Assembly (NCBI GenBank): GCA_045632845.1
Contig: JAZQXL010000023.1
Coordinates: 8,485 to 72,484 of the forward strand
Length of the DNA stretch: 64,000 nt
Direction: 5' to 3'
Source of the DNA: Alphaproteobacteria bacterium
GTDB lineage: Bacteria; Pseudomonadota; Alphaproteobacteria; CAAHEQ01; UBA3637
Below, in pieces: positions 3,539 through 63,414 of this stretch. The first letter of the stretch is position 1, and every line of letters starts with the position of its first letter. A model generated the notes under the pieces. It searched no databases. It saw only the letters and a program-made list of their open reading frames with translations, and was not told the origin of the DNA. A program made the translations under genes and the position numbers.

Positions 3539-4105
3539 TTATCTTGTCACTTCTTTATTCTTTGCTAAAGGACTGAATGCACCAGACCTTTCAACTTCTT
3601 TTTTATTAATAATAATTGTAGATAATGCAACACAACTCATAGCAATTTGTTTTGCTGCAGCTAAAACATTTTTTTTCACCTCTGGATTATTAGGATCTAA
3701 TGCTTGCACAACAGATGCAAAAGGAGCGTCTTTGTCAGCTATATCCATCTTTGGCAAGTCAACTTTTGACAAATCATCTTTCTCTTTAACATCCAACATA
3801 GGCACGACCAAACTTGTTAGCATTTCAACAAAAGCTGCTTTTTCCATTTTCGGCATTTTGTCCAATCCGTTTAAAAATGCTTGTGCTTGCTCGTCAGTAA
3901 TGCTTGTTGGGATATTAAAAATATCACTTCCCTTTTCTATACGTGGTAGATTGATTGATTTTAAAGTTTCTTCCCCACGTTTTTTTGCCATATATTCAGC
4001 AAATTTTTGAACTCCGGCTTGAACACGTGGATCAGACGCATCTAAATGCTTTCTTTCCATCATTGGGATATCAATTTCTGTTAAATCATTTGGTTTTTGT
4101 GTCAT
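3539..4105 (-). CDS. hypothetical protein (orphan, charged, no signal peptide)
   Basis: Minus-strand ORF. I prefer the start at MTQKPNDL (ATG 4105-4103), preceded by GGAG (4112-4115 on the plus strand). The track start at 4153 lies inside the predicted -10 box. I recognise no family. Confidence 0.5.
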   Translation of the reverse strand: MTQKPNDLTEIDIPMMERKHLDASDPRVQAGVQKFAEYMAKKRGEETLKSINLPRIEKGSDIFNIPTSITDEQAQAFLNGLDKMPKMEKAAFVEMLTSLVVPMLDVKEKDDLSKVDLPKMDIADKDAPFASVVQALDPNNPEVKKNVLAAAKQIAMSCVALSTIIINKKEVERSGAFSPLAKNKEVTR

Positions 4106-4144: not shown

Positions 4145-4174
4145 ATTATACATCTCTCCTTTTTATTTTGACAA
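4145..4174 (-). promoter_or_regulatory. sigma70-like promoter TTGTCA-18 nt-TATAAT for the orphan gene at 3539-4105
   Basis: The minus strand reads GTTATTGTCAAAATAAAAAGGAGAGATGTATAATAAAAAT. The -35 is at 4174-4169 and the perfect -10 TATAAT is at 4150-4145. Confidence 0.5.
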
Positions 4175-4183
4175 TAACTTTTA

Positions 4184-4192
4184 CCCCCCCCC
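4184..4192 (-). repeat. homopolymeric tract, C9 on the plus strand (G9 on the sense strand of the downstream gene)
   Basis: Counted directly: ttaCCCCCCCCCgaat. It lies 9 nt upstream of the -35 hexamer of the promoter above. Confidence 0.95.
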
Positions 4193-4712: not shown

Positions 4713-5546
4713 TTAAGAACGTTCGTTTTGTTCAGAATTTGATTTTAATCTCTTTAAAAATAAAGGACATAATTTTATAAAATTTGAGCGCATCTCAATT
4801 TCTAAATTTTCTTTTTCTTGAACAAATTTTGAAGCATAACGAGCCAAATTGCAGCTTGCAAAATTCTGGCTTAATATAGCTTGAATGCCAACTGATTCAT
4901 TATCTTTTGGTTCAATTTCTTTTATTCTTCTATCAACTAAATTTTTCAACCCTTCAGTATTAAGATTTGATAAACTGATCAAATCATCTCTTTTTTCAAA
5001 TAAAGGACTTAATTTTGCAATAGCCGCTGCTTTTGGTTTGCTTGAAAACATCCTTGCTGCAAAAGTTTCGACATTTTTAATCATATAATCAATAGCTGAT
5101 TGACCAGATTTATTTTTTAATTCAAAATCAACACCTTTTGATTTTAGTGCGGCAACGACCTTTGCATTTAAAGCTCTTGTGCCAAGCAAATAAAAACCTG
5201 CGTGTTCACCTTTTGCATTTGTTTTTGAAAAATCATAACCTGCTTTTGCCATTTCATCAATCAATCTTGGTGACAAACGACCATAAGATGAAAGATAATC
5301 CCCCATGCGGTATTGATCGGGATTTGAACGAGTATCACCCAATGGGGCATTTAAATCACAATGGTGTTTTTTCAATAGCTTGACCATTTCAAAATCAAAA
5401 TTTGATCGACCAAGAAGCAATCTTAAAACCTTAACAACATCTTTTGGTTGAAGTGGGTCAGATGATTTGCCAAACACATGTTTGATTTCTTTAATATTGC
5501 CTGTGCGTAAAACACGTTCTAATTCTTTTGTTTCTTTTGATAACAT
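4713..5546 (-). CDS. hypothetical protein with ankyrin-repeat-like N-terminal half
   Basis: 277 aa. Segments FEMVKLLKKHHCDLNAPLGD and NAKGEHAGFYLLGTRALNAKVVAALKSKGVDFELKNKSGQSAIDYMI fit the ANK helix-turn-helix plus xGADxN pattern. The C-terminal half is unassigned. Confidence 0.45.
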   Translation of the reverse strand: MLSKETKELERVLRTGNIKEIKHVFGKSSDPLQPKDVVKVLRLLLGRSNFDFEMVKLLKKHHCDLNAPLGDTRSNPDQYRMGDYLSSYGRLSPRLIDEMAKAGYDFSKTNAKGEHAGFYLLGTRALNAKVVAALKSKGVDFELKNKSGQSAIDYMIKNVETFAARMFSSKPKAAAIAKLSPLFEKRDDLISLSNLNTEGLKNLVDRRIKEIEPKDNESVGIQAILSQNFASCNLARYASKFVQEKENLEIEMRSNFIKLCPLFLKRLKSNSEQNERS

Positions 5547-55964: not shown

Positions 55965-56534
55965 ATGATAAAAAGCTATTTTTTTGTTCTTTTTATTTTT
56001 TTTCATGCATTTTTAACAAATGCGCAAACAACTTTTCCCTCTTTTGAAGATAGAGTTCATATTTTAAAAACCCCATTTGAACCGGACTTATGCCTTGATG
56101 GATATGCAGGATCTTGGACAGGGGCTTGCATTTGCACACAAAAGCAAGAAAAGCCGAACAGATACTGCCTTTCTTCTTCCAACAAAATTGAAATTCTGCC
56201 TTATATAAAAGTGAATGATAAAACAATCACCCTTTCGGGCGGAATAACAAACTGGGAAGAAGCAAAACTTTTTTGCACACAAATCGGTGATGGGTTTAAA
56301 TTAGCCTCTCGAGCTGATTTTAATTGCAAACAAACAGGCCTTGGCTGCCTTGACAATGAATTGTTCCTCCCAATTAAAGAAAAATATGGCAACAGAGGCT
56401 TTTTTTGGCTAGAAGAAACTGAAGATCGTAAAAAAGCCTATTACGCTGATTTAAATGATGGAACGATATATAACACTTCAAAATCAAATTCAACAACCAT
56501 GCAAGCATTATGCATTAAAGAGGATAAAAAATGA
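55965..56534 (+). CDS. secreted Cys-rich protein with C-type-lectin-like / DUF1566-like C-terminal half
   Basis: 189 aa from MIKSYFFVLFIFFHAFLTNAQT (signal peptide; RBS GGGGGA). 9 Cys. The segment ITNWEEAKLFCTQIGDGFKLASRADF ... FFWLEE ... ALCIKE resembles the WxEAxxxC...LAS lectin-like pattern. ATGA overlap with the next gene. Confidence 0.4.
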   Translation: MIKSYFFVLFIFFHAFLTNAQTTFPSFEDRVHILKTPFEPDLCLDGYAGSWTGACICTQKQEKPNRYCLSSSNKIEILPYIKVNDKTITLSGGITNWEEAKLFCTQIGDGFKLASRADFNCKQTGLGCLDNELFLPIKEKYGNRGFFWLEETEDRKKAYYADLNDGTIYNTSKSNSTTMQALCIKEDKK

Positions 56535-58069
56535 AATTTAAATTTTCACTTTTATTATGTTTATTAAGCTGTTCAAGTTTTGCTCTTGAAGCAGATCAAA
56601 AAAGAGAAGTTGAAATTAACGCTCAGTATGAAGAAGTTGAATACACGTTTGAAGAACCTTTTGTTCTTCAAGACCCATATAATAGAAACCCTCTTTCAGC
56701 ACTTGTGAAATTTCCAACTGAAAATGAGGCTCAAATTACATTACAAATTTTATCAAAAGAAGGGGTACCTGAACTAACCCACACTTTTGATGAATTTAAA
56801 AAAGAGCATGAAATCCCTGTTTTAGGGCTTTACCCTAATATGGATAACAAAATTCAATTAACTGCCACAGATAAAGAGGGTACCACTCGAATAAACACGC
56901 TTTCAATTACAACAAAAAAAGCAAGCAAAAGAGCTTTATTTACCATTCAAAACAAACAAGACCAAAAAATGAAGTATCATTATTTGCACGGCGGTCTTGT
57001 TTTTGATGAAAATGGCGTTGTTCGTCTTGATTTTAAACCAGAATATGAAATGCTCTATTTTCTCAACAACTCCTTTGTTGCAGAAGATAGAAATAAGGGT
57101 CTTATACAATATAATATAATGGGGAAAAAAGAAAAGGTCTTTACCTACCCTGATGGCTTTACCTCTTTCACCCACGGGCTGACACAAAAACCAAATCAAA
57201 ATTATCTGGTCATTGGATCATTTAACAATCAAAAAGCCACCTTTCAAGATAAAGAAGCTCAAACACAAAGAGAATTTGTAATTGAATTAGATTATGAAAC
57301 AGGCAAAATGGTCAATAAAATTGATTTAGCAACCCTTTTAAACCCTGATCGCTCTGTTATTATTAAATCTAACACCCAAAATTATGGATTAAATAACTGG
57401 TGCCATATCAACTCTGTCGATTATAACAAAGAAGATGAAAGTATTGTCGTTTCTTGCAGACATGTTGGATTGATTAAAATTAATGAAAAAACAAATGAAC
57501 TTGATTTTGTGATTGCCCCCCATAAGGGATTTGAAAAATCAGGCAGAGATGGCAAAGGGCAAGACCTTTCAAGTAAATTACTCACCGCTTTAAATAATAT
57601 GGGAGAAACACTACCCGACACAGTTCAAGAAGGAACACAAAGTTATCCCGACTTTAAATGGCCAACAAAAACGCATGATGCTAAAACACTTGGGAATGGC
57701 ATATATAGTATTTTTGATAACTCTGGGCCTTTGTATGACAAAACAATAGCAACAACCACTCTTTCTAATGCTCAAGTTTTTAAAGTGGATGAAAAGAACA
57801 AAACCATTCAAAGCATCTGGTTTGAACCACTTGATTTTCATTCAGAATCAGGCTCAAGCGTTCTTTACAACCCTAAAGAAAACGAAGTAACCGTTTATTT
57901 AAGCATTGTTAAAGATAATTATCAACAAGGTCTAGCCACAGGCAAACTCATTCGTTATGATTTAACCACACACCAAAAACTTTTTGAAGCCAGCATTTAT
58001 CGTGGTGGGGAAACATATTTTTATGGCCTTATGCCATTTTCATTTTATAACAACAAGGATTTAAAATAA
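56531..58069 (+). CDS. arylsulfotransferase (ASST) family protein, exported
   Basis: 512 aa. Signal peptide MKFKFSLLLCLLSCSSFALEA. ASST-like core NWCHINSVDYNKEDESIVVSCRHVGLIKI and a later WPTKTHDAKTLGNG. From my memory of the E. coli AssT alignment, these cover the His/Arg/His positions described as catalytic. Confidence 0.75.
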   Translation: MKFKFSLLLCLLSCSSFALEADQKREVEINAQYEEVEYTFEEPFVLQDPYNRNPLSALVKFPTENEAQITLQILSKEGVPELTHTFDEFKKEHEIPVLGLYPNMDNKIQLTATDKEGTTRINTLSITTKKASKRALFTIQNKQDQKMKYHYLHGGLVFDENGVVRLDFKPEYEMLYFLNNSFVAEDRNKGLIQYNIMGKKEKVFTYPDGFTSFTHGLTQKPNQNYLVIGSFNNQKATFQDKEAQTQREFVIELDYETGKMVNKIDLATLLNPDRSVIIKSNTQNYGLNNWCHINSVDYNKEDESIVVSCRHVGLIKINEKTNELDFVIAPHKGFEKSGRDGKGQDLSSKLLTALNNMGETLPDTVQEGTQSYPDFKWPTKTHDAKTLGNGIYSIFDNSGPLYDKTIATTTLSNAQVFKVDEKNKTIQSIWFEPLDFHSESGSSVLYNPKENEVTVYLSIVKDNYQQGLATGKLIRYDLTTHQKLFEASIYRGGETYFYGLMPFSFYNNKDLK

Positions 58070-58809
58070 TGGGAGAAATAATTCTTTTTAGTATACTCGG
58101 CTTTTTTGCAAGCATTATTGATGGCTGTATTGGTATGGCCTATGGGACGATTTTAGCCTCCATTTTTGCCTTAAATGGCGTACCACTATTGGTGAGTAGT
58201 GCAAGCATTCACTTTTCTGAAATTTTCACAACCCTTGCCTCAGGCCTTTCGCATCTATCTTTCAAAAATGTTGATTTCAAATTACTAAAAAAAATTGTGT
58301 TGCCTGGTGCACTTGGAGCTGTTATTGGAGCATTAATGCTTTCCTTTGCAAGCGATCAAATATTAAGACCCATTGTTTCTTCCTATTTAATTGCTCTTGG
58401 GATATATATTCTTTTAAAACAACATGTTAAAAAGAAAACAAAGTCATTCAAAAGATTTAGATTTCTTGGCCTGATTGGTGGTTTTTGTGATGCTGCGGCA
58501 GGTGGCGGTTGGGGCCCAATTGTCACAGGAACACTCATTTCAAGAGGACACATTCCACATAAAACCATTGGAACAGTTAATTTGACTGAATTTTTTGTTA
58601 CACTTTCTCAATCAGCCATTTTCTTTTCAGCAATAGGCTTAACCTCTGTTAACATTGTGATTGGTCTTATTTTGGGAAGTGTTATTGCTGCCCCATTTGC
58701 AGCATATATTGTAAAAAAAATCAATCCAATGGTATTGATTAAATTGGTAGGATATATTATCATCATCACCAATATTATTAATTTAATTATGTTTTTTTGC
58801 GGATTATAG
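58069..58809 (+). CDS. TauE/SafE (TSUP) family membrane transporter
   Basis: 246 aa, about 7-8 TM segments. Two-fold internal TSUP pattern (IIDGCIGMAYGTIL ... FCDAAAGGGWGPIV). Its ATG shares one base with the upstream TAA (TAATG). Confidence 0.78.
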   Translation: MGEIILFSILGFFASIIDGCIGMAYGTILASIFALNGVPLLVSSASIHFSEIFTTLASGLSHLSFKNVDFKLLKKIVLPGALGAVIGALMLSFASDQILRPIVSSYLIALGIYILLKQHVKKKTKSFKRFRFLGLIGGFCDAAAGGGWGPIVTGTLISRGHIPHKTIGTVNLTEFFVTLSQSAIFFSAIGLTSVNIVIGLILGSVIAAPFAAYIVKKINPMVLIKLVGYIIIITNIINLIMFFCGL

Positions 58810-59667
58810 ATGAAACATTTAAAAATATTAGAAGCTGAAGCCATCGACTTGATCAGAGATGTTGTTTTTTCAAATGATATTGAAAAACAAATTGTTTTTT
58901 ATTCGATTGGAAAGGATTCTTCTTGCCTGCTCCATTTGTTTAAAAAAGCATTTCATCCCTTTCCTATCCCCGTTAAATTTATGCACATTGATACAGGTTG
59001 GAAATTTAAGGAGATGTATGAGTTTCGCAACAAAATTCAAAAAGATATTGAGCTTATCGTATATAAAAATCCAAAAAATTTGAACCCATTCACTGATGGC
59101 TCCTTATACACTGATGTTATGAAAACAGAAGCCCTCAAACAAGCGCTTAATCTTTATGATATTAAAATTGCATTTGGTGGGTCCAGACGGGATGAAGAAA
59201 AATCCCGCGCAAAGGAGAGAATGGTTTCTGTTAGAAATGAATATCACAAGTGGGATCCAAGAAATCAAAATCCTGAAATTGCCCCACTTTATAACACGTT
59301 TTTTACGCCCAAAACGTCTTTGCGTGTTTTTCCGCTTTCAAACTGGACAGAGCTTGACATTTGGCAATATATCAAGCAAGAAGAAATTGAAATTGTCCCC
59401 TTATATTTTGCCAAGAAAAGAAGAGTTCAAACACTGCCCTCTGGGATGATGATTGCAACAGAAAATGAAACAGGAGAACTTAAAAAAGTAAGATTTAGAA
59501 CTTTAGGTTGCTACCCGCTCACAGGAGCAGTTTTATCTGATGCAACTACCATTGACGATATCATTGAAGAGATTAAAACAGCCCAATATACCGAACGTAT
59601 TACACGAATTATCGATTATGATACCGAAGGCTCAATGGAAAAAAAGAAAAAGGATGGATATTTTTAA
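58810..59667 (+). CDS. cysD: sulfate adenylyltransferase subunit 2
   Basis: 285 aa. LEAEAIDLIRDV, PP-loop FYSIGKDSSCLLHL, HIDTGWKFKEMYEFRN and the C-terminal EGSMEKKKKDGYF typical of CysD. Confidence 0.9.
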   Translation: MKHLKILEAEAIDLIRDVVFSNDIEKQIVFYSIGKDSSCLLHLFKKAFHPFPIPVKFMHIDTGWKFKEMYEFRNKIQKDIELIVYKNPKNLNPFTDGSLYTDVMKTEALKQALNLYDIKIAFGGSRRDEEKSRAKERMVSVRNEYHKWDPRNQNPEIAPLYNTFFTPKTSLRVFPLSNWTELDIWQYIKQEEIEIVPLYFAKKRRVQTLPSGMMIATENETGELKKVRFRTLGCYPLTGAVLSDATTIDDIIEEIKTAQYTERITRIIDYDTEGSMEKKKKDGYF

Positions 59668-61043
59668 TGAAAAGTGTGTTTAAATTTATTTGCTGTGGCA
59701 ACGTAGATGATGGAAAATCCACACTGATTGGTCGCTTGTTGTTAGATACAAATAATGTGAAAAAAGACCAATTAGAAGATGCCCTTAAAGTTTCTAGAAA
59801 AAATGGCTCTGAACAAATCGAGTTAGCAATGTTGTTAGATGGTTTGCTTTCTGAAAGAGAACAACAAATCACTATTGACATTGCTCACAGATTTTTTGAT
59901 TATCAAGACATTCGCTTTCATATTTTAGATTGTCCAGGTCACGAGCAATATACAAAAAATATGGCCATTGCCGCTGCTGAAGCAAACACAGCCATTGTTG
60001 TGATTGATGCCCTCAAAGGAATCAAACCCCAAACTTTAAAACATATTGAAATTTGCAGCCTATTTCAAATCAAAAACATTTTGGTTTGCCTTACAAAAAC
60101 GGATTTATTAAAAAATTCAAAAGGTCAAATTGATCTTAAAAAACTAAAACCCCTTGAAAAAGAGATTCAATCCATTCTTAAAAATTATAACTTTAATTAT
60201 GAAATTATCCCTGTTAGCGCAGTTACAGGTTTTAACACTGATTTTGTCTTAAAGTTTTTGTATAAGAATGCACTTAAACATATTGAAAGTGAAGAAAAAA
60301 ACTCAAAACAAATACTTCACGTTTTGAACTCTAAACTTTTTAAAAATACAAGATATTATTATGCAAAACCAGTGTTTCAAAATAAAGAAATTTTAAACGA
60401 AAAATTCACCGTTTATCCGCAAAATACAACTGTTACAATAACCAAAAACTTTGATAACGGATGTTTTAGCATTTTGGAAAATGTTGATATTTCAAAAGGG
60501 GATTGCCTTTCAAACTCTGAAGTTTTAATCTCCAACAAAATTTCACACAAAAGTATCTTTTTTGATAAAAAAACCCCCTCTATGCTATTTAAACACGGAT
60601 CTTCCATCAGACGGGTTGTTCAACTAACCCCTTCTACGTTAGAATTAGATGGAGAAATCGTTTTTAACAACATTGAAGATATCAAACAAAATGGCTTTGG
60701 CATTTTCATTGACGAAATAACAAAAAAAACACTGGGCTGTGCCGTATTTTCAAACAACCAAAAAGAATGTGCGCCCTCCATGGACATTATCAATTACATC
60801 ATCTATGGGGCAACTCATTTAAAACGCGTTCAAAAAGCATTGGAAATTAAAAGTCAATTTCACCCTGCTCCTTTTATTTTAGATCCTGCGGATCTTAAAT
60901 TCAAAATTTTAACAACTGAAGAATTGATTATGCTTGCTGAATATATCAATTCACAAGGAACTTCAACCATCTGCTTAGCTGAAACTGAACCTAAAAAGCC
61001 TACCTCAAATTGCATACTAATCAATCTTGATCAGGAGAAGTAA
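59667..61043 (+). CDS. cysN: sulfate adenylyltransferase subunit 1 (GTPase) with about 95-aa extra C-terminal tail
   Basis: 458 aa. G1 GNVDDGKSTLIGRLL, LDGLLSEREQQITID, G3 DCPGHEQY and G4 TKTD. EF-Tu-like domains II/III end near residue 365. The tail is discussed in findings. Confidence 0.85.
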   Translation: MKSVFKFICCGNVDDGKSTLIGRLLLDTNNVKKDQLEDALKVSRKNGSEQIELAMLLDGLLSEREQQITIDIAHRFFDYQDIRFHILDCPGHEQYTKNMAIAAAEANTAIVVIDALKGIKPQTLKHIEICSLFQIKNILVCLTKTDLLKNSKGQIDLKKLKPLEKEIQSILKNYNFNYEIIPVSAVTGFNTDFVLKFLYKNALKHIESEEKNSKQILHVLNSKLFKNTRYYYAKPVFQNKEILNEKFTVYPQNTTVTITKNFDNGCFSILENVDISKGDCLSNSEVLISNKISHKSIFFDKKTPSMLFKHGSSIRRVVQLTPSTLELDGEIVFNNIEDIKQNGFGIFIDEITKKTLGCAVFSNNQKECAPSMDIINYIIYGATHLKRVQKALEIKSQFHPAPFILDPADLKFKILTTEELIMLAEYINSQGTSTICLAETEPKKPTSNCILINLDQEK

Positions 61044-61044
61044 T

Positions 61045-61491
61045 ATGAAATTCAAAACGCTCACTCTCATTGCTTTGATGTTTTTGTCACACCCTGCTTT
61101 TGCAGATTGGAAAATTGAAAAAAATGATCTTAAAACATTTGAAAAGTTTGCAAAAACGGATGAGGTTGAATTATACACCGGCGACAGTATTTTGCATGAT
61201 TTTGAAAATCTTCCAACAGAAGGTCACAAATTTGTTTTGGTCAAAATAACAGCAAGTAATCAAGACACAAGCATACCACCTCTCAATTCTTTAGCGTTCA
61301 AACTCAAAATAAATGATAAAACCTATTCAAGAATTGATAATGACAAATTTTTGCTCAATTATAACATCAAACCATTTACAAGATTAAAAATCAAAAAAGG
61401 AACTCATGAAGGGCATTTATTATTTGAAATACCAACAGCTGAACTTTCAAATAACGTGACTCTTTTTTATAACGATAAACCAATTCAATAG
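61045..61491 (+). CDS. secreted DUF4352-like (Ig-like fold) protein
   Basis: 148 aa from MKFKTLTLIALMFLSHPAFA (RBS AGGAGAAG). The pattern GHKFVLVKITASNQD ... AFKLKINDKTY ... HEGHLLFEIP matches the usual DUF4352 layout. Confidence 0.5.
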   Translation: MKFKTLTLIALMFLSHPAFADWKIEKNDLKTFEKFAKTDEVELYTGDSILHDFENLPTEGHKFVLVKITASNQDTSIPPLNSLAFKLKINDKTYSRIDNDKFLLNYNIKPFTRLKIKKGTHEGHLLFEIPTAELSNNVTLFYNDKPIQ

Positions 61492-61500
61492 GATTATTTT

Positions 61501-62923
61501 ATGCTAACTTTAAAAAAATCTTTTTTCATCAGTGGAGCTATTCTTTTAGCACTTGTCACACTAAAACACCAAAAAGACAATATTTTTCAATATGTTAAAC
61601 CCGTAAATGGGGGGGGGTATTGAGCAAGTTCTTTTTAACAATGAAGAACTTATTCCGCCTTTTTCGCCAGACACAAACACTTACCATGTCATCTCTGCAA
61701 GCACATTAAAACCAAATATCCTTCAAATTGGAGATATCAAAAAAGAAATTAAAATTGAAAATTTTGAAACAAACCCATCCATTCCATTAGATGTAAATGG
61801 GCAAAAAATCAACATTCATTTATATCCCAAAGAATATCCCAAATATTCAATGAAACAGTTTTCTCAACCAACAACAAACAACGCTATTACGATCACAAAC
61901 TTTACCCCTAATTGTGGAAATTCTTCTTTTAATTTTATCTTTTCAGAAACGGGCAAACTCCTTTTTTATCGACGGACCCGACTGGAACTTTGTACTTCAG
62001 ATTTCAAACAAACAACGCTTCCAAATGGGGAGAAAGTATATTCTTATATGCAACAAGAAAAACCTGTTCCTCCCTTTCATTACTTGAGTGGTTCACTGGT
62101 TGTAATGAATAGTCAATTTGAAGTAATTGATAAATTAACCATTCAAGAAACAGACAAGCACCCTGCTCTTATGGTTGAAAATCATGATTCATTGATTTTA
62201 GATAAAAATCACTTTATCCTTTCTGCCTATCATGAAACTGAAATTTTAAATCCAGTAACAGAGCAACCTGTTTTCGTGGCAGAATCTGTTATTCAAGAAA
62301 TCAAAGATGGAAAAGTTGTTTTTGATTGGGTTAGCTCAGATTATCCTGAATTATACACACATTTTAAATATCCAGATAAAAACTTAGATAAAAACTTTCA
62401 TGATTATATGCATTTTAACTCAATTATCATTGATCCAAAAGATAATAATTTCATTGTTTCCTTTGCCTCACAATCATCAATTGTTAAACTCAACCGACAA
62501 ACGGGTGAAATTATGTGGACATTAGGCGGATTAGGAGATGATTTCAAATTAGATAAAAAATATCACTTTTTTGGACAACACAGTCTTTCATTTGATGATA
62601 AAGGTAACATCATACTTTTCGACAACCAATCAGCAGATTTTAAAAATCGTATTAGTAAAGAACCTGAACTCAAATACAGTCGAATTTTAAAATTTAAACT
62701 CGATGAAAAAAACAAACAAATCTTATATGCAGAAGAAATTCCTCTTAATTTTCAAACAGAATCAATGGGCTCTGTTTATCAAACAGATGATGACACTTAT
62801 ATTATCTCAAAGGGAAATAAAAACGCTGTTGAAAAAATAAAGGTTAAAGGAAACAAAGTTCAAAAAATATGGGAATTACGCCTCCTTAAACCAACCTATC
62901 GAGCATATGAAATTAAACCATAG
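61501..62923 (+). pseudogene. second ASST-family gene, interrupted by a frameshift in a G9 tract (phase-variable, pseudogene or assembly error)
   Basis: Frame 1: ATG 61501 encodes MLTLKKSFFISGAILLALVTLKHQKDNIFQYVKPVNGGGY, stop TGA 61621-61623. Frame 2: 61607-62923 encodes a 438-aa ASST-like body (HDYMHFNSIIIDPKDNNFIVS...GEIMWTLGG...FFGQHSLSFDDKGNIILFDN). Removing one G joins them as ...KPVNGGGIEQVLF... Confidence 0.7.
61609..61617 (+). repeat. homopolymeric G9 tract at the 5' end of the second ASST gene
   Basis: Counted directly: aaatGGGGGGGGGtattgag. Confidence 0.95.
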
Positions 62924-62928
62924 GATTT

Positions 62929-63414
62929 TTACAAAGAAATCTCATATTCTTGAACAAAAGCGTCAATCCATTCTAAATATTGGCGATTTCCTGTCAATTT
63001 AAACCCATACTTTTGATAAAATTGATTTGAAATTGGGTAATTTTCCAACGTAAAGAGGTTTATTTTCTTAACACCTTGAGATTTCAAAAATTCCATTACA
63101 TAAAAAAGCAAAGCTTTGCCAAAACCATTTCGTTGACAATCTGGCAAAACATAAAAAACCTTTATTTCCGCGCAATTACCGTCAAACTCATTCAACCCAA
63201 TAAAGCCTTTAACCAGTCCCTCTTCTTCTGCCACAAAAACAAGCCCTTTTTCAACAGGGACTTTCATTTTTGCAATCCTTTTTTCCGAAACTTCATAAGC
63301 GCCACTATCTAAAATAACATCTTTTATATACCCACGATATGAAACTTTCCACGTTTGAACATGTACTTGAACAATTTGTTCAACATCATTTAAAGTAGCT
63401 TTTCTGATTTTCAT
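62929..63414 (-). CDS. GNAT-family N-acetyltransferase
   Basis: 161 aa. Acetyl-CoA motif VLPDCQRNGFGKALL and C-terminal NQFYQKYGF. Confidence 0.85.
   Translation of the reverse strand: MKIRKATLNDVEQIVQVHVQTWKVSYRGYIKDVILDSGAYEVSEKRIAKMKVPVEKGLVFVAEEEGLVKGFIGLNEFDGNCAEIKVFYVLPDCQRNGFGKALLFYVMEFLKSQGVKKINLFTLENYPISNQFYQKYGFKLTGNRQYLEWIDAFVQEYEISL

Follow-up and report, generated by a model that had tools for sequence, protein, structure and literature searches.

A poly-G tract in a sulfation operon of an uncultured gut alphaproteobacterium is a probable slipped-strand switch of an aryl-sulfate sulfotransferase-family gene

Background

Slipped-strand mispairing in poly-G or poly-C tracts at the 5' ends of genes is the classic on/off switch of Neisseria, Haemophilus, Campylobacter and Helicobacter, and for a few mucosal pathogens such simple-sequence contingency loci are standard textbook material. 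Tracts may also lie in promoters, as in porA of Neisseria meningitidis, where the repeat occupies the spacer between the -35 and -10 hexamers. Phase variation in gut commensals is mostly known from DNA inversion. For Campylobacter, G9 is the most common length among phase-variable tracts, the cut-off applied is at least 7 nt, and homologues that differ in tract length count as an indication of phase variation (PMC6321876).

Here we describe a comparable tract in a 64,000-nt stretch of DNA (the window) that comes from a ruminant-gut alphaproteobacterial MAG. A preliminary description, made by reading the sequence, had proposed that a run of nine G's separating the signal anchor from the body of the second aryl-sulfate sulfotransferase (ASST) gene of an operon, ASST2, acts as a slipped-strand switch. 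The run is longer than the PhasomeIt cut-off for G/C tracts (at least 7), and G9 is also the commonest Campylobacter length (PMC6321876). A full-text literature search returned no description of phase variation in an ASST and none of contingency loci in this lineage.

Results

The reading frames around the tract were reproduced as the preliminary description gave them (Table 1). A 40-codon ORF with a hydrophobic N-terminus (61501-61623; translation MLTLKKSFFISGAILLALVTLKHQKDNIFQYVKPVNGGGY) runs through the tract into a TGA, while the 438-aa ASST-like body, which Pfam ASST models match, is open in the next frame. Residues 7-21 of ASST2 have a mean Kyte-Doolittle hydrophobicity of 2.33 and are preceded by the KK motif. 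In silico editing of the tract also bore out the earlier statement that loss of one G or gain of two would fuse anchor and body in frame, the product being 473 aa with G8 and 474 aa with G11 (...KPVNGGGIEQVLFNN...). With G6, G9 or G12 a stop follows after 39-41 codons, and with G7 or G10 after 68-69 codons. A single-unit change would switch a defined gene between a full-length product (G8, G11) and peptides of 40 aa (G9) or 69 aa (G10).

The preliminary description had further allowed for a leaderless cytoplasmic form, started at ATG 61607, as a third state of the switch. Such a form is unlikely: this ATG exists only by chance, where an AAT happens to precede a G, inspection of the sequence upstream of it found no Shine-Dalgarno or motif comparable to the AGGA of the true start, and the out-of-frame allele of a relative (L035, described below) has no such ATG.

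Table 1. Coordinates in the window of the ASST2 switch region, its operon and the second poly-G tract
Feature	Position	Strand	Basis
Promoter-like TTGTCA-18-TATAAT (11/12 matches) for downstream 204-aa ORF	4145..4174	-	sequence
Second G9 tract, intergenic, 9 nt 5' of -35 hexamer	4184..4192	-	sequence; length differs between strains
ASST1, first ASST gene of the operon, intact (Ig-like N-terminal domain + ASST domain)	56531..58069	+	domain matches
TauE/SafE-family anion exporter gene	58069..58809	+	domain match
cysD (sulfate adenylyltransferase small subunit)	58810..59667	+	domain match
cysN-like GTPase subunit	59667..61043	+	only residues 2-190 match CysN models (G domain)
DUF4352 protein with signal peptide, directly 5' of ASST2	61045..61491	+	domain match
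Shine-Dalgarno-like AGGA, 7 nt 5' of true start ATG 61501	61490..61493	+	read from sequence
ASST2 N-terminal 36 codons: KK motif, 15-residue hydrophobic segment (signal anchor/signal peptide), start of variable linker	61501..61608	+	sequence; near-identical to N-terminus of intact 471-aa orthologue P0002
ASST2 catalytic body, 438-codon open frame (Arylsulfotran_2 / Arylsulfotrans)	61607..62923	+	Pfam
G9 homopolymeric tract GGGGGGGGG, proposed slipped-strand switch (G8/G11 ON, G9 OFF)	61609..61617	+	run scan, in silico edits, orthologue tracts
TGA closing 40-codon N-terminal ORF in G9 (OFF) state	61621..61623	+	sequence

The window has a G+C content of 34%, and the earlier remark that a G9 is conspicuous in DNA this AT-rich, with only one other 9-nt G:C run present, holds up quantitatively: GGGGGGGGG occurs twice on the two strands together against an expectation of 0.04, and none of 100 dinucleotide-preserving shuffles contained two or more G9 runs. 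The lengths of G/C runs are distributed bimodally, with three runs of 6 nt, none of 7 or 8, and two of 9. Of the glycine codons only 19.5% are GGG, and where Gly-Gly-Gly occurs elsewhere in long ORFs (five cases) it is written in mixed codons that form no homopolymer. The G9 tract of ASST2 is more than chance.

We also changed each of the 126 homopolymer runs of the window (A/T of at least 7, G/C of at least 6) by one base and scored the resulting ORF fusions. A genuine split gene was joined at the ASST2 tract only (1 of 126); the higher-scoring fusions proved to be ordinary gene boundaries, such as cysD/cysN. At the other 125 runs, A9 and T8 among them, no gene breakage was found, so the window assembly is not generally unreliable at homopolymers. 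A noisy long-read assembly was rejected on the same ground.

Both Pfam ASST models place ASST2 in the family, the 438-aa body exceeding their gathering scores: PF14269 (E = 1.6e-24, 87.3 bits, cut-off 27) and PF05935 (E = 1.2e-22, 81 bits, cut-off 24.2). From residue 1 onward, and over its whole length, the repaired protein can be aligned with intact orthologues (471-480 aa) encoded in the syntenic operon. Its H304 and H360, invariant in 16 orthologues, align with His356 and His436 of Escherichia coli AssT, which we take to be the catalytic histidines of that enzyme. Repair of one base gives a full-length ORF, with no other stops, both in the window (473 aa) and in L035 (477 aa), and the Ka/Ks ratio of ASST2 is 0.22 in comparison with L001 and 0.19 with L005. 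ASST2 is under purifying selection, and is intact apart from the tract. The preliminary description had named a uniform G9 in all populations, together with further disabling mutations in relatives, as the mark of a plain pseudogene; the two fully readable OFF alleles (window, L035) have no lesion besides the tract.

Identity between ASST2 of the window (61501-62923) and L001:8001-9416 is mosaic, reaching 90-98% in parts of the first 240 codons, falling to 83% in one 40-codon interval of that stretch and lying at 61-78% beyond it; the whole 10.5-kb region is 81% identical between the two. This pattern suggests recombination or diversifying change in the C-terminal part. Two homologues carry additional domains: P0030 is fused to an autotransporter beta-domain, a fusion that implies surface display and fits an extracytoplasmic or surface location, and P0017 has a family-2 glycosyltransferase domain downstream in the same ORF.

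To place orthologous junctions in or out of frame we used the distance from the ATG to the conserved VLFNN motif, which is 126 or 129 nt in ON alleles. By this measure AGAGGGGA (L001-L004, L007) and CCCGGGGAG (L008) are in frame at 126 nt, and GGAGAGAGG (L005) and GAGGAAGG (L036) are in frame at 129 nt. Also in frame are a G9 in L006 (129 nt) and a G8 in L048 (PGGGGPRV). Out of frame are the G9 of the window (127 nt) and a G7 in L035 (NCBI MAG GCA_054288145.1; 128 nt), where signal anchor and body lie in different frames and the gene caller retained only a 401-aa remnant. Logan contigs supplied a CCCCAGA-G8-TATCCCCCAT allele (runs X2, X24 and X26) that is one base short and out of frame by -1, and a GGGAGA-G6 allele (X2) that is out of frame by +1, the same status as the window; a Logan contig of X11 ends in at least eight G's, then TGCCCCCCGT. 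Comparison of tract length in relatives, the check put forward in the preliminary description, has thus given, at the junction in question, in-frame tracts of G9 and G8 and out-of-frame tracts of G7 and G8.

The same ASST2 linker therefore exists in interrupted (locked ON), pure ON and pure OFF versions, in two clades about 29% diverged in DNA. Tract length varies among these orthologues with both ON and OFF states represented, on flanks other than the window's own haplotype; among the contigs examined, no allele combined the window's exact flanks with another tract length, and in run X18 a contig that shares the downstream flank of the window stops at the tract. Relative to L001, the window tract corresponds to three A-to-G changes, which give G8, plus one additional G.

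These allele counts must be read with their sources in mind. Logan contigs from 28 runs were examined, most of them short and of low depth and many broken at tracts, and they yielded a few alleles but showed no heterogeneity at read level; several OFF alleles rest on contigs of low depth (2-6x), at which the length of a homopolymer may be miscounted. The in-frame alleles were retrieved by protein search, which favours intact genes, so the ratio of ON to OFF alleles is not meaningful. Scans of JGI metagenome contigs with DNA patterns for the window-clade and sister-clade junctions gave no matches. Contigs from the independent runs X5, X18 and X11 end exactly at the two poly-G tracts (window 4182, 61616 and 61628); shallow coverage, or an assembly graph with tracts of several lengths, could account for these ends.

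ASST2 closes a tightly packed same-strand cluster (ASST1, TauE, CysD, CysN-like, DUF4352, ASST2), and the gene that follows it, a GNAT acetyltransferase (62929-63414), is convergent. Because ASST2 is last in the operon and its neighbour is convergent, an OFF frameshift would have no downstream polar target and the switch would touch this enzyme alone. Contigs with 88%, 81%, 80% and about 71% identity to the window carry the operon in collinear form. The nearest relatives come from roe deer colon and other gut samples and are MAGs that bear the label Alphaproteobacteria. Sequencing runs with words in common with the window are metagenomes of gut and bovine gut, and a search for RNA runs turned up none. 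Exact-protein look-up of the 438-aa ASST2 product and of its DUF4352 neighbour gave no record, and a protein search with the 40-aa N-terminal ORF, aimed at OFF-state mini-ORFs, recovered the window's own ORF alone.

Within the cluster, profile models detected no APS-kinase domain in the CysN-like protein, the C-terminal half of which has no model match. The presence of an ATP sulfurylase beside two ASST-family enzymes, which are thought to be PAPS-independent, is an unexplained pairing.

Tracts of G or C recur elsewhere in the ASST2 family and in the operon. In the MAG "Azospirillum sp. 51_20" (L024) a G12 at L024:9971-9982 lies about 136 codons into the ASST2 homologue and puts it out of frame, and with G10 or G13 an open frame of 485 or 486 codons would return. 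In a clade whose protein is 52% identical to that of the window, a C10 in the signal-peptide region is out of frame (L049:1483-1492 and L050:17-26). Sister alleles of these two that are ON differ by one proline (MTTTPH vs MTTTPPH), with TTPH also present, and the same C10 allele was recovered twice, in assemblies from ENA and from Logan. The sister clade's cysN-like gene has an in-frame C9 at L006:6860-6868 and L035:4635-4643, and in L036 a C8 at 4863-4870, where the gene is called as two pieces; at the equivalent cysN-like position the window has no tract. A G11 at L011:8074-8084, about 170 nt 5' of the ASST homologue of MAG UBA7488, adjoins a run of N and was set aside as unreliable, since it may be a scaffold or masking artefact.

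The second G9 of the window had been described as lying, like the first, at the 5' end of an accessory gene. Closer reading corrects this: the tract is intergenic and in a promoter region, past the thioredoxin terminator and 31 nt 5' of ATG 4153, and the likely start of the 204-aa ORF is the ATG at 4105, which is preceded by a Shine-Dalgarno sequence. Nine contigs (L039-L047) encode a thioredoxin identical to that of the window. The tract is G8 in L040, L041 and L046 and G9 in L043, as in the window, and L044 ends inside it with a run of at least nine G's. Two contigs (L039, L045) are without the tract-bearing segment of about 85 nt and have TTGAAA-17-TATAAT instead; L042 and L047 end before the position and are uninformative. 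A second hairpin segment present in L039 and L045 is missing from the window. Since strains with an identical thioredoxin carry either G8 or G9, poly-G length is unstable on a short evolutionary scale in this species.

Discussion

We conclude that ASST2 is probably a slipped-strand phase-variable locus, and that the window carries its OFF allele. On this reading the G9 would be a hypermutable simple-sequence tract in a variable, glycine-coding linker between export signal and catalytic domain, and slipped-strand mispairing during replication would add or remove G's. G8 or G11 would yield the full exported enzyme of 473 or 474 aa (ON), G9 a 40-residue signal-anchor peptide and no enzyme (OFF), and G10 a 69-residue peptide (also OFF). 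The core of the preliminary proposal, a poly-G switch at the junction of anchor and body, is well supported by the tracts of orthologues, the single lesion and the purifying selection, and its leaderless form falls away. We infer that the tract changes length often and reversibly inside a single population and that the switching is adaptive, a likely reason being that the exported enzyme or its sulfated target would be exposed to phages or host immunity.

An out-of-frame ASST2 in the window, and likewise in several relatives, could also denote a plain pseudogene, in which a one-base insertion at a hot spot has permanently removed the enzyme and the OFF alleles of relatives are independent losses of a dispensable gene. 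We regard this as unlikely. Both fully read OFF alleles have the tract as their sole lesion, and Ka/Ks is about 0.2; the losses would need to strike homopolymer tracts each time, and building those tracts beforehand took several A-to-G changes (AGAGGGGA to G8) that run counter to codon preference in the rest of the window; and pure tracts also occur in frame (L006, L048). Somewhat less probable still is a miscount in assembly or sequencing, by which the true majority would be G8 and the gene intact in the strain, though its tract might still be hypermutable. The window is indeed a metagenome-assembled contig, and poly-G is error-prone and a place where de Bruijn contigs often break, but the remaining 125 homopolymer runs of the window, including A9 and T8, disrupt no gene, and out-of-frame tracts recur in independent assemblies (C10 in ENA and Logan, AGA+G8 in three runs).

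Low-level slippage on long homopolymers is known in bacteria, and G9 might be stable in the DNA with the full-length enzyme made by programmed recoding, either through transcriptional slippage or through a +1 ribosomal frameshift on GGG codons. Any codon inside a G run re-pairs perfectly after a +1 slip, and GGG is not the preferred glycine codon, both of which would suit such a mechanism. The orthologues argue the other way: close ones are without a tract and simply in frame, and the OFF alleles would need opposite shifts (-1 nt in the window, +1 nt in L035 and the X24 type). The slip site itself also has neither a stop nor a rare codon right beside it. Conserved programmed frameshifting can be rejected, because neither the slippery site nor the direction of shift is conserved among orthologues, and we consider recoding of any kind very improbable. 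The phase-variable reading accordingly has the largest share of our confidence.

A broader proposal is more tentative, and we hold it as a possibility somewhat short of even: that simple-sequence phase variation in a family of uncultured Alphaproteobacteria of the gut has the sulfation operon as its core target, with G/C tracts arising repeatedly and independently at four places. These may be the signal-peptide region of ASST2 (C6, C9, C10), its signal-to-domain linker (G7, G8, G9), an interdomain site of the same gene (G12) and the cysN-like gene of the sister clade (C8, C9). If this were true, commensals would stochastically switch a sulfated surface structure or a secreted sulfated metabolite, much as pathogens do with modifications of LOS or capsule, and contingency-locus biology would extend to commensal Alphaproteobacteria.

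The ASST2 tract suggests that an uncultured alphaproteobacterial lineage from the gut of ruminants and humans uses poly-G/C switching, the proposed target being a predicted exported sulfotransferase inside a dedicated sulfate-activation operon. If this is confirmed, genes of this lineage that look in MAGs like "pseudogenes" frameshifted at G/C runs would be recognised as regulated, not as errors or decay, and the ASST2 product would become a candidate trait, exposed or open to selection, on which phages or the host exert pressure. Natural alleles would then let one trace how a hypermutable tract is born (AGAGGGGA to G8 or G9) and how it is locked (GAGGAAGG).

Comparison with known systems

The periplasmic AssT of E. 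coli CFT073 (PDB 3ELQ) resembles ASST2 in belonging to the Pfam ASST family and in having an N-terminal export signal, which in ASST2 is predicted. The two are distant, however (profile E = 6e-07 over about 55 residues): Arg374 of AssT has no aligned counterpart in ASST2, which lies on the Arylsulfotran_2 branch and has as its nearest solved relative not AssT but the sulfotransferase 9KF4 (E = 3e-25).

The second tract of the window is, like that of N. meningitidis porA, a promoter-region poly-G, and it is G8 or G9 between close strains. It differs from porA in its placement, which we put 5' of the -35 hexamer, at about -45 to -53. Being upstream of the -35, a change in its length would not alter hexamer spacing.

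The closest parallels to ASST2 itself are the contingency loci of Campylobacter jejuni, Neisseria meningitidis, Haemophilus influenzae and Helicobacter pylori. Both they and ASST2 have a G/C homopolymer of 7-12 nt near the 5' end, in an accessory gene of an AT-rich genome whose product is exported or surface-related (predicted for ASST2) and is truncated by a one-base change, and in both the tract lengths vary between homologues, with ON and OFF states. ASST2 departs from them in its host, an uncultured commensal gut alphaproteobacterium where the known hosts are epsilon-, beta- and gammaproteobacterial pathogens, and in its switched target, which here would be an aryl-sulfate sulfotransferase-family enzyme.
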